A stretch of 48,098 nucleotides of DNA from an uncultured Gammaproteobacteria bacterium (GTDB lineage Bacteria > Patescibacteriota > Patescibacteriia > Magasanikbacterales > GWA2-37-8), in NCBI GenBank assembly GCA_964619625.1, contig CAZUFD010000001.1, positions 138,258 through 186,355 of the forward strand, written 5' to 3'. Of the stretch, positions 15,961-35,425 are shown one piece after another. The notes under the pieces were generated by a model. The model saw only the letters and a program-made list of their open reading frames with translations. It searched no databases and was not told the origin of the DNA. How positions within the stretch are numbered: position 1 is the first letter of the stretch; each line of letters starts with the position of its first letter. The position numbers and the translations under genes were made by a program.

Positions 15961-16592
15961 ACCTGCCTATGTTGGTCGTTTGGATCATCGCGCTTTCTGT
16001 GTTTTTAATTGTCGGGGGAGCTGCGGCTTCTTATCGTGTCAAAGGCGAGTCTGTTGGCATGGGGCTTGCCACGGTTTCAGCCATTACATTTTGGATGACC
16101 GGTTTGGTGTTAGGATTTTTCATCACGCTGTTTTCTTCTCCTACGCCCGAGACTTGGTGGTGGGCGCTCTCTGTTCGCGTGGCGTGGCAAGTTGGTGGCG
16201 CAGCTTTTTTTGGTCTGGCAATCTTATTCGATAGTTCTTTAATTAGAAAAGAAGATCGCAAAAAAATAGGGGGTTGGATTTTTGTGGCTGTGTGCGTAGC
16301 AATTGGTGTTTTGGTAAGTATTAATTCTCTGCGCGACCTTATCCAGGGTCCGGTAACTATGCACGGCGCTGTAAACCTCGAGGTCTTACGCCAAATGCGG
16401 CCCAAATATGGGCCTAGAATAAGTGGTGAATTAGATATCATTACTTCTGACGGTATTCATTATCAAATGAATATATTTGGCTGGCCTGTCCAAAAAGCAG
16501 AAGAAATTTTGGAACAGTGCGATAATGCAGGTGAAGTAGAAATCGTCATGCTGCAGAGGATGAACAGGCTGCTTGATGCGCGTTGCCAGTAG
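15957..16592 (+). CDS. Hypothetical membrane protein (about 4 TM plus soluble domain)
   Basis: ATGA overlap with lgt, hydrophobic segments. Confidence 0.7.
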   Translation: MNLPMLVVWIIALSVFLIVGGAAASYRVKGESVGMGLATVSAITFWMTGLVLGFFITLFSSPTPETWWWALSVRVAWQVGGAAFFGLAILFDSSLIRKEDRKKIGGWIFVAVCVAIGVLVSINSLRDLIQGPVTMHGAVNLEVLRQMRPKYGPRISGELDIITSDGIHYQMNIFGWPVQKAEEILEQCDNAGEVEIVMLQRMNRLLDARCQ

Positions 16593-16597
16593 TTACA

Positions 16598-16626
16598 TTG
16601 ACTTTATACCCGTTTTTATATAGAAT
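16598..16626 (+). promoter_or_regulatory. tRNA-Ser promoter (TTGACT-N17-TAGAAT)
   Basis: Near-consensus elements ~20 bp upstream of tRNA. Confidence 0.65.
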
Positions 16627-16645
16627 GAAACGGCAATAAACTTCG

Positions 16646-16730
16646 GGAGAGGTCGCATAGTGGCCTAGTGCGCACGCTTGGAAAGCGTGTATACAGAAAT
16701 GTATCGAGGGTTCAAATCCCTCCCTCTCCG
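16646..16730 (+). tRNA. tRNA-Ser(GGA)
   Basis: GGAGAGG/CCTCTCC acceptor, CACGC-TTGGAAA-GCGTG anticodon arm, long variable arm, TTCAAAT T-loop. Confidence 0.95.
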
Positions 16731-16880
16731 CAGAAGCGACCAAACTGCTTTGGTCGCTGGGATTTGAACGTCGGAGCGATGTTTGGCGACGCAGGCGGGC
16801 GAGTCAAACCGCGAGACGGTGGCTAGACAAAATTTTCGGAAGAAAATTTTAGTCGAAGCCAAATCCCTCCCTCTCCGCCA
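16713..16880 (+). mobile_element. ~130-bp structured insert at tRNA-Ser 3' end flanked by 19-bp direct repeats (tandem-GA family, copy 3)
   Basis: CAAATCCCTCCCTCTCCGC at 16713-16731 and 16860-16878; internal inverted copy GGGATTTG; GA.GA-containing stems. Confidence 0.75.
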
Positions 16881-17129
16881 CATATCCAAGTTAGAACTGT
16901 CTTTAATATCTTATTCTGCTTCGGCAGTTTTTTTTAGATTCAGATAACTTCAAACCAAATAGGGTTCGGTAACCAAATAAGGGGTCTGGTGTAGTATATA
17001 ATATAGAGGGGCTGATGATTTGTGATAAAGCAAATTGTCAGATATTTTGCTGTATGATACAGTAAAATATATTTAATTCACTGGGAAAAAATTAAGCACA
17101 TTTAATTTTTTCTTTCACTCAATTTGTAT

Positions 17130-35295: not shown

Positions 35296-35369
35296 GGGCG
35301 TTTAGCTCAGCTGGTTAGAGCGCCTCGTTTACACCGAGGAGGTCTAGGGTTCGAATCCCTAAGCGCCTA
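35296..35369 (+). tRNA. tRNA-Val(TAC)
   Basis: GGGCGTT/AGCGCCT acceptor, CCTCG-TTTACAC-CGAGG anticodon arm. Confidence 0.95.
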
Positions 35370-35425
35370 CATAAGAGCGAGCAAATAGTTTTGCTCGCGA
35401 CAAGGGATGAGAATACAAAAGAAAT

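Follow-up and report, generated by a model that had tools for sequence, protein, structure and literature searches.

A family of modules behind Patescibacterial tRNA genes with a covarying fold and the architecture of the E. coli tRNA-linked repeats

The window analyzed here is a 48,098-nt stretch of DNA from a Patescibacterial genome of the order Magasanikbacterales (GenBank assembly GCA_964619625.1, contig CAZUFD010000001.1; completeness 94%), and the subject of this study is a short module that directly follows its gene for tRNA-Ser(GGA). The gene is located on the plus strand at 16646-16731 according to ARAGORN, or at 16646-16730 according to the Rfam tRNA model (56.9 bits), and starts 20 nt past a plus-strand promoter-like site (TTGACT-17-TAGAAT, 10/12; 16598..16626). 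It does not encode CCA, and the discriminator G at 16730 is followed by CAG. A stretch of the tRNA 3' part that opens at position 56, the T-loop C, and extends one base beyond the discriminator is repeated downstream on the same strand: the 19 nt at 16713..16731 (tRNA positions 56-73 plus 1) match 16860-16878 exactly, at a spacing of 147 nt. A sequence-only reading of this DNA had described this duplicated tail and had pointed out that only the distal copy carries an encoded CCA; both descriptions are accurate for the window, with CCA at 16878-16880 and CAG at the proximal end. The module begins 4 nt past tRNA-Ser(GGA) on the same strand and is present as a single unit.

All parts of the module are given here in plus-strand order. 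Hairpin H0 (16735..16758) has a 10-bp stem (16735-16744/16749-16758) and a 4-nt loop; its sequence is kept across the family described below, and good H0 matches in this genome are restricted to the 3' sides of tRNA genes. The left arm (16759..16769), 11 nt long, is the reverse complement of tRNA positions 53-63. The first 8 nt of the arm pair with the distal repeat as helix P1, and its end, AAC (16767-16769), is near-invariant across the family, with the C starting helix P2a. Arm P2 (16769..16818) consists of P2a, a conserved GGA/GA internal loop, P2b, an AU bulge, P2c (6-7 bp, covarying) and a 15-nt loop closed by GA...GA. The junction strand GUG (16819..16821) leads from P2 into arm P3 (16822..16859), which is composed of a GCU/AGC closing helix, an A/GA internal loop and a covarying stem with a GGAA tetraloop, the loop being flanked by the 9-bp arms AAAATTTTC/GAAAATTTT. 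The distal tRNA-tail copy (16860..16880) completes the module; its first 8 nt pair with the left arm in P1, and the remainder has no conserved partner inside the module. Further downstream, the first terminator-like signal 3' of tRNA-Ser(GGA), identified by eye, is a 4-bp GC stem that carries a TTCG loop and has T8 after it (16916..16935, plus strand), which falls under the 5-bp threshold of the scan tool.

The hairpin, the antisense copy of the T-loop and T-stem, and the AAAATTTTC-GGAA-GAAAATTTT arms, all of which the sequence-only reading had listed, were each recovered by an inverted-repeat search. The predicted fold of the plus strand is H0 plus a three-way junction, at -60.5 kcal/mol versus -44.6 +/- 3.8 kcal/mol in 200 shuffles (z -4.14; 0/200 shuffles as good), and the reverse strand gave z -3.44. 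A three-way junction closed with the distal copy had been proposed from the letters of the window, and it is borne out both by this predicted fold and by the covariation of its helices across the family.

The 147-bp insert is one copy of a widespread module family and not the scar of a single insertion. Three more copies of its 128-nt interior occur in the same 0.98-Mb genome, located behind tRNA-Ser(TGA) (90% identity), tRNA-Ser(CGA) (79%) and tRNA-Ser(GCT) (truncated). The core common to the tRNA-Ser copies spans ~108 nt within a non-coding module of ~130 nt. The full tRNA-Ser copies each close with the tail of the tRNA that they follow, and the sequences of these tails are not the same. The copy after tRNA-Ser(TGA) has CCA on the proximal repeat only and the copy after tRNA-Ser(CGA) has no CCA, so the proposal that the distal copy is the original tRNA end, made on account of its CCA, fails in these sister copies. 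A motif search combined with reading of the flanks in this genome found truncated copies also behind tRNA-Leu(CAA), tRNA-Pro(TGG) and tRNA-Val(TAC), and a module with a different core behind tRNA-Asp. The tRNA-Val(TAC) copy is the second one in the window: it occupies 35375..35413, within the stretch 35371-35413, on the plus strand, behind the tRNA gene at 35296-35370 (plus strand), and keeps H0 and the left arm, the core and the distal repeat being gone. In two relatives (L039, L024), tRNA-Val(TAC) is followed by full module copies.

Several other irregularities were seen at tRNA genes of this genome and its relatives. The truncated tRNA-Ser(GCT) module (L003, contig C1 of this genome, G000; minus strand, ~1500-1390) is fused to the 3' end of an apparent open reading frame (ORF) without a start, which suggests that a deletion took the 3' half of the module and the 5' part of a gene. 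Beside tRNA-Ser(GCT) at the same locus (2122-2211), ARAGORN called a tRNA-Ser with the unusual anticodon ACT, as it did in several congeners (L009, L034, L036 and L043). Additionally, a 33-nt exact copy of the 3' part of tRNA-Ile(TAT) plus its flank (G000:C17:5494-5569) occurs ~108 nt downstream of that gene. This duplication starts further 5' than those of the module family and is possibly another kind of tRNA-end duplication.

In order to follow the family beyond this genome, we used a covariance model, R1, built from 28 copies. In a sample of 151 genomes of the order, R1 matched 39, which carry 1-15 copies each in ~1 Mb (29/59 genomes of family f1 and 7/58 of family f5), and in a phylum-wide sample of 151 genomes it matched 6, this genome and one congener included. 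An exact 16-mer seed from the module found 120 stretches in a species-representative collection. Of these, 80 were searched with R1, giving 18 strong and 2 weak matches; many of the other seed loci are chance occurrences in GC-rich genomes. The strong matches are labeled Candidatus Magasanikbacteria, Kuenenbacteria, Komeilibacteria, Adlerbacteria, Parcubacteria group, Patescibacteria group and Saccharibacteria, and three of the records carry the label 'uncultured Gammaproteobacteria'. A scan of 16500-17100 with Rfam 15 at E <= 10 reported only tRNA above threshold and no model for the module. The sX4 model (RF02223) was rejected as an identity, since its score of 32.1 bits is below the gathering score of 70 and stems mostly from the tRNA-Ser-like part. 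Judged from listings and abstracts, we found no description of this Patescibacterial module family in the literature.

Copies of the module stand behind tRNA genes, on the same strand. Among 39 BLAST rows in relatives, 37 have a same-strand tRNA nearby (Ser, Leu, Pro, Thr, Asp, Lys, Val, Arg or Gln). In 48 newly fetched loci, 50 of 54 R1 matches have a same-strand tRNA upstream, 4 of the 50 being second units or lying farther off. The tRNAs of this set are of 11 types (Pro, Ser, Lys, Leu, Arg, Ala, Asp, Asn, Met, Glu and Thr); with Val, from the BLAST rows, at least 12 tRNA types carry the module. The four R1 matches without an ARAGORN tRNA comprise L100, L064, one match at a contig start and one orphan. 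At L100, a group I intron (RF00028, 56.8 bits, 87-411) splits the tRNA gene ahead of the module, and therefore ARAGORN misses the tRNA; L064 looks the same by eye. We had considered that these two loci carry a tmRNA 3' end upstream, but ARAGORN found none, and the RF00028 match in L100 points to intron-containing tRNA genes. Of 17 copies taken from named records with 292 nt of flank, 10 have a tRNA upstream and 7 do not. The sequence-only reading had suggested searching other tRNA genes for such small inserts, and the same arrangement is indeed found at dozens of them.

The tail copy was compared with the upstream tRNA in two partly overlapping sets. In a set of 30 copies, the 18 nt past the core matched tRNA positions 56-73 perfectly in 15 and with 1-5 errors in 13, and were not found in 2. 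In a set of 54 copies, 28 were perfect, 8 had one mismatch, 11 had more than one and 7 were not scored. The tails of tRNA-Pro(CGG) vary between genomes, and the distal copy matches its own tRNA every time. On its left side the repeat always starts at position 56, and its length ranges from 18 to 41 nt; repeats longer than ~23 nt (27-41 nt) run on into the start of a second, truncated unit.

To assay the fold across the family, we tested covariation in 89 model-aligned copies, 86 of them distinct, against a hand-written structure consisting of P1, re-registered P2a and P2b, P2c and P3. The alignment had been fitted to a related model structure, which favors P2c and P3, whereas P1, P2a and P2b are absent from that structure in this register. 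Paired cells made up 91.0% versus 74.0% in shuffles, compensatory changes occurred at 24 of 31 pairs (488 cells versus 146 in shuffles), and the covariation score was reached by 0 of 500 shuffles. When the partners were slid by 1-3 columns, 26-39% were paired. The window copy contributes one compensatory change in P2a, having U-A in place of the C-G of most copies. Between 79 and 85 of the 86 copies share the junction and loop bases: the near-invariant unpaired bases are the junction AA (83), GUG (80), the GGA loop (83), the GA loop (82) and the AU bulge (79). The GA-rich arm loops singled out by eye in the window are thus conserved unpaired positions of the family. The loop of P3 is GGAA in 69 of the 86 copies. 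G-U pairs outnumber A-C mismatches (54 versus 26), and this excess, taken with the GNRA loop, suggests an RNA that is read from the tRNA strand. Taken together, the compensatory changes, the GGAA loop and the near-invariant junction bases indicate that the RNA fold of the module is under selection.

We also asked whether the fold belongs to a known structural class. A tRNA-like acceptor helix was rejected as a general feature, as a significant 5' partner for the acceptor strand exists in only 8 of 86 copies (p <= 0.05), and thus the module is not a full acceptor/T-arm minihelix. By eye, the kink-turn, the integron attC site and the hammerhead were set aside because their loop sizes and core strings do not fit.

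The antisense arm raises the question, already put by the sequence-only reading for the pre-tRNA, of whether the module acts on its own tRNA. On such an account the arm would pair with the T-loop and T-stem in the precursor or in trans, the distal copy would be a competing partner, and the module would serve as a folding switch, a chaperone, a sensor or a decoy for T-arm enzymes. In the window the 11 nt of the arm are perfectly complementary to tRNA positions 53-63, which is 3 nt beyond the pairing with the distal copy, and the AAC able to pair with G53-U54-U55 is near-invariant; AAC is, however, equally explained as a strand of the three-way junction. In 47-51 of 86 copies, P1 has G.A/A.G instead of Watson-Crick pairs at its two positions opposite tRNA 57-58, which speaks against this account. 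Of 426 positions, those at which the tRNA and the distal copy carry different letters divide into 21 where the arm fits the tRNA, 6 where it fits the distal copy and 16 where it fits neither; some rows of this comparison were mis-registered. Arm-tRNA and arm-distal-copy pairing are otherwise inseparable in these data because both partners carry the same letters. Co-transcriptional folding is well established, and the tRNA would be transcribed, and could fold, before the arm exists. We judge an action of the module on its own tRNA to be improbable.

At the DNA level, the copies show patterns suggestive of recombination. Two identical units stand in tandem after tRNA-Pro (L096), as do two after tRNA-Met (L097). 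The tRNA-Leu(CAG) gene of the present genome is an empty site, and its flank equals the flank that follows the distal repeat in a module-carrying congener. Behind tRNA-Ala and tRNA-Pro of one genome, the cores are alike but for 1 nt, with H0 and the arms locus-specific and matching each tRNA. On a tree the cores do not group by tRNA type (60 label changes versus 61.6 when shuffled, from 93 columns and poorly resolved). A subfamily with a 28-nt extra hairpin occurs behind six different tRNAs in two congeners, with differing P2 stems. These observations fit unequal crossing-over between tail copies and gene conversion among cores. Four skips of 119-129 nt between repeat copies in metagenome contigs were not counted as empty sites, as their sides are just 20-31 letters at 85% likeness and could equally be tRNA-Ser genes of other organisms. 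A loose regular expression for an arm directly joined to a tail copy (an 'empty frame') returned noise.

Multiple copies, a patchy distribution, at least 12 tRNA types, and filled and empty orthologous sites are also what would be expected of a non-autonomous mobile DNA element that targets the T-loop or 3' end of tRNA genes and is moved by a protein encoded elsewhere. Such an element could resemble a miniature inverted-repeat transposable element (MITE), a cis-mobilizable element (CIME) or a homing-endonuclease passenger; the tRNA tail would be duplicated or replaced on insertion, and the RNA fold would serve mobility, as a guide or recognition structure, or be incidental. The left edge of the repeat, fixed at position 56, and its variable right edge (18-41 nt) are in keeping with this account, but the long repeats are explained by truncated second tandem units. 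Many copies have an unduplicated terminator hairpin between the tRNA and the module, which means that the repeat is not a target-site duplication. The arms are specific to the tRNA, not to an element, and recent exchange involved the core only. Moreover, unpaired bases that hardly vary and a GNRA loop argue for a function as RNA. The sequence-only reading had called the insert a tRNA-targeted mini-element with an att-like duplication. Its description as miniature, gene-less and tRNA-linked stands; the att-site part is not supported as proposed, in view of the unduplicated terminator-like hairpins, the swapping of cores between locus-specific arms and the failure to find a tRNA-type integrase in the six genomes searched.

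A search for proteins that might move the module covered this genome and five copy-rich genomes. One ORF with a Phage_integrase domain (324 aa) is encoded in this genome, and each of the five copy-rich genomes has one full-length counterpart. These recombinase ORFs measure 324-342 aa and occur once per genome in 5 of the 6; in the remaining genome (G130) there is a second, fragmentary match (an 86-aa frame with one TAG). Our guess is that these one-per-genome tyrosine recombinases are Xer-like. No Phage_integrase ORF lies near any copy in the six genomes, serine recombinases not having been searched. The TnpB zinc-ribbon (PF07282) was found in 0 of 6 genomes, while the control matched 8 of 14 reference genomes, and the IS110 DEDD domain (PF01548), the mark of the recombinase that goes with the bridge and seek RNAs of IS110/IS1111, had no match in this genome. 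A reverse transcriptase domain (RVT_1) is absent from this genome and from 2 of the 5 copy-rich genomes; in the other 3 it occurs in stand-alone RVT_1 proteins with no Rfam RNA alongside. Thus, no candidate enzyme for moving the mini-module emerges. The exact 16-mer seed gave 39 hits in viral contigs, and with this one seed 0 of the 39 matched R1, so none provides a real copy or a larger element carrying the core.

In a congener, at L043 (G011:C5, minus strand, ~3630-1690), an array of cassettes stands at tRNA genes: tRNA-Ser(ACT) and tRNA-Ser(GCT) are each followed by a ~330-nt insert that encodes an 80-aa GIY-YIG protein (Pfam E 2.7e-12) and has, at its end, the final 17 nt of the module core and an imperfect tail copy. 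This GIY-YIG ORF, in the same frame of repeats behind two tRNA-Ser genes, speaks for a mobile element. Downstream of one of the two ORFs lies a gene, putatively 2H-phosphoesterase/LigT-like, and then another 5'-truncated core remnant with a tail copy. GIY-YIG proteins were rejected as a driver in the present genome, whose two small ORFs are not near tRNAs and have inverted repeats of their own. These ORFs are at G000:C4:23037-23252 and G000:C3:9098-9319; the former is flanked by a ~25-nt inverted repeat, and a similar string follows the latter.

Other, unrelated cores in the same frame likewise favor a mobile element. The tRNA-Asp module of this genome (L005, G000:C16, minus strand, ~1380-1560) has the H0-plus-arm frame around a different core. 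It contains an 11-nt string, putatively the CR-I consensus of RNase P RNA, near a GGGTGAAA string. An RNase P-like identity was rejected for this core, which has no Rfam match at E <= 10; the RNase P RNA of the genome is at G000:C7:2410-2795. Further unrelated cores in the same frame (a GAAC-ended arm, a core and a tail copy) were seen at L169 and L026, the one at L169 in tandem with a copy of the family studied here. Considering both sides, we regard a non-autonomous mobile element as possible but rather unlikely.

Bacterial MITEs, such as the Rickettsia palindromic elements and the Correia elements, are small, gene-less, multi-copy, hairpin-forming and patchily distributed, and the module shares each of these properties. 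Unlike in MITEs, its ends copy the neighboring tRNA instead of forming element-specific terminal inverted repeats, the repeat has no fixed length (18-41 nt), position and orientation behind tRNA genes are strict, and no transposase partner was found in the searches above. In integrative elements of tRNA and tmRNA genes and in CIMEs, repeats of the tRNA 3' part flank an insert, units accrete in tandem and the tRNA is left intact. The module similarly is flanked by direct repeats of the tRNA 3' part, forms tandem units at one tRNA and leaves the tRNA intact, but no cognate integrase was found, a conserved and covarying RNA fold makes up the insert, the repeat varies with the tRNA around a common interior, and terminators lie within the 'insert'. 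The omega RNAs of IS200/IS605 TnpB and guides of the Cas12 type consist of a structured scaffold followed by ~18-23 nt identical to a genomic target. The module too is a scaffold with a 3' tail identical to adjacent sequence, and a GGTT in the T-loop precedes the would-be target; in contrast to those guides, there is no TnpB/Cas12-type zinc-ribbon in the 6 genomes, the 'target' and its flanking motif are intact at the locus, and the tail copy is decayed in ~40% of copies with the core kept.

Decayed islands or prophages offer another route to such repeats: tyrosine integrases would have inserted them at tRNA genes, and the module would be the scar, with attL and attR around a shrunken interior. 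Direct repeats from the T-loop to the tRNA end are typical of tRNA-integrating islands, and the gene cassettes of the congener (GIY-YIG, then the gene read as 2H-phosphoesterase-like) sit between such repeats. However, dozens of loci in several candidate phyla-level groups retain one and the same 108-nt interior with compensatory changes, and independent decay would not produce this pattern. In addition, there is no adjacent integrase, and the seed used gave no viral-contig match to R1. An origin as island scars is therefore very improbable.

With these alternatives weighed, we favor, with moderate confidence, the reading that the module is a Patescibacterial family of tRNA-trailer RNAs of the tRNA-linked repeat (TLR) type, spread and homogenized by recombination. 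The E. coli TLRs have been known since 1978; they include the 178-bp distal repeats of tyrT/tyrV, the RttR/RtT RNA (Rfam RF00391) and the RrA/B/F small RNAs of rRNA operons. The TLR-type reading draws on what we observe, namely the anatomy of the module, its family, its covariation, its co-orientation with tRNA genes, its tandem units and empty sites, the exchange of cores and the architectural match to RttR; we infer its transcription, its processing and any cellular role.

The module is most likely transcribed together with its tRNA, through the tRNA promoter or by read-through of a first terminator, as judged from sequence patterns. A promoter-pattern scan found no promoter-like site between tRNA-Ser(GGA) and the module. 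Asp, Lys, Arg and some Pro copies have a terminator-like hairpin between the tRNA and the module and another after the tail copy, and terminator-like hairpins stand 3' of the distal repeat in many copies. The RNA would fold as H0 plus the three-way junction, with P1 built from the antisense copy (left arm) and the sense copy (distal repeat) of the 3' side of the T-loop/T-stem. What is left of the distal repeat, namely the 3' strand of the acceptor and the discriminator with, in this copy, CCA, would give the module the 3' tail of its tRNA. Processing of the tRNA 3' end would then release the 5' end of the module, and the tail copy would let the same end-maturing enzymes set its 3' end. The product would be a discrete, stable small RNA whose level tracks transcription of the tRNA. 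In the DNA, tail copies would recombine to give tandem units and clean deletions and to keep the distal copy identical to the tRNA, and cores would be swapped between loci by gene conversion.

A number of findings weigh against this TLR-type reading. With no general acceptor helix, recognition of the module as a tRNA-like end is doubtful. Homology to the E. coli RtT RNA was not detected, as RF00391 has no match in 16500-17100 at E <= 10 and R1 scored at most 5.2 bits over the full length of the E. coli units. R1 had no match in 4 of 13 congeneric genomes (97-100% complete), so the module is dispensable. The distal tail has 1-11 mismatches or insertions in ~40% of copies in which the core is intact, and thus the tail part may not be under selection. 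Recombination alone does not explain how the module spread to at least 12 tRNA types with matching arms. Lastly, a search of this genome found no RNase E/G and only weak RNase Z matches (27.6 bits versus a cut-off of 293); the processing proposal made for E. coli is therefore not transferable as such.

The common frame of the two groups also admits a more radical interpretation. Both the E. coli TLRs and the Patescibacterial family consist of an antisense T-arm copy ending GAGAA(C/G), a core and a sense tRNA tail, and the same frame hosts other cores and a GIY-YIG gene. This shared frame might be the footprint of a conserved process that writes sequence behind tRNA genes and uses the T-loop as its address, although we give this little credence. 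The antisense arm could be an internal guide that directs attack or ligation to the U55-C56 bond; alternatively, an unrecognized RNA-guided protein could use the scaffold plus tail as its guide. If such a footprint were real, the three-way-junction core would be an active RNA and not a passive trailer.

Whatever their mode of spread, the modules offer material for further work. With a family of this depth, a consensus structure can be probed and a covariance model used for a census, and the natural filled, empty and tandem alleles are suited to tests of the origin and role of the module. That up to 15 copies are kept in a ~1-Mb genome is notable in itself.

The closest comparison for the TLR-type reading is with the E. 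coli repeats themselves. [quoted passage not shown] The same text, from 2021, gives them no known function; it describes the TLRs of rRNA operons as produced by read-through between two terminators and proposes that the repeat is an RNase E processing signal (PMC8144298). RttR is one of the tyrT repeat units, as stated in a second source (PMC3318445). Measured against these descriptions, the Patescibacterial module similarly lies directly 3' of a tRNA on the same strand, carries an 18-19-nt tail identical to the end of the upstream gene (19/19 in the window), occurs as one to several tandem units, and has some copies placed between two terminators.

The likeness extends to the internal order of parts. 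In the tyrV-rttR units of E. coli K-12, the closing helix starts with an antisense copy of the tRNA-Tyr T-stem/acceptor that ends in GAGAA; this helix encloses a multi-helix core, and a 19-nt tail copy follows. The minimum-energy fold of the E. coli unit closes on the antisense-arm/tail helix, and its energy is no better than that of shuffles (z -0.92, one unit). The tyrV-rttR frame is thus the frame of the window module (antisense arm, core, tail copy), a likeness of architecture only.

The two groups differ in several respects. The repeat starts at position 56 in the Patescibacterial module, versus ~58-76 covered in E. coli, and it usually lacks CCA because most such tRNA genes do not encode CCA. 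The E. coli proposal invokes RNase E, which was not found in the genome of the window. Compared with the E. coli TLRs, the Patescibacterial module has a compact three-way junction, strong covariation and a GGAA loop, and it is found behind a much wider range of tRNAs and in more copies relative to genome size. Its compensatory changes and invariant junction bases are evidence for selection on the RNA fold of a TLR-type module, and with it the TLR architecture is present, as a large family, in a distant, genome-reduced phylum.

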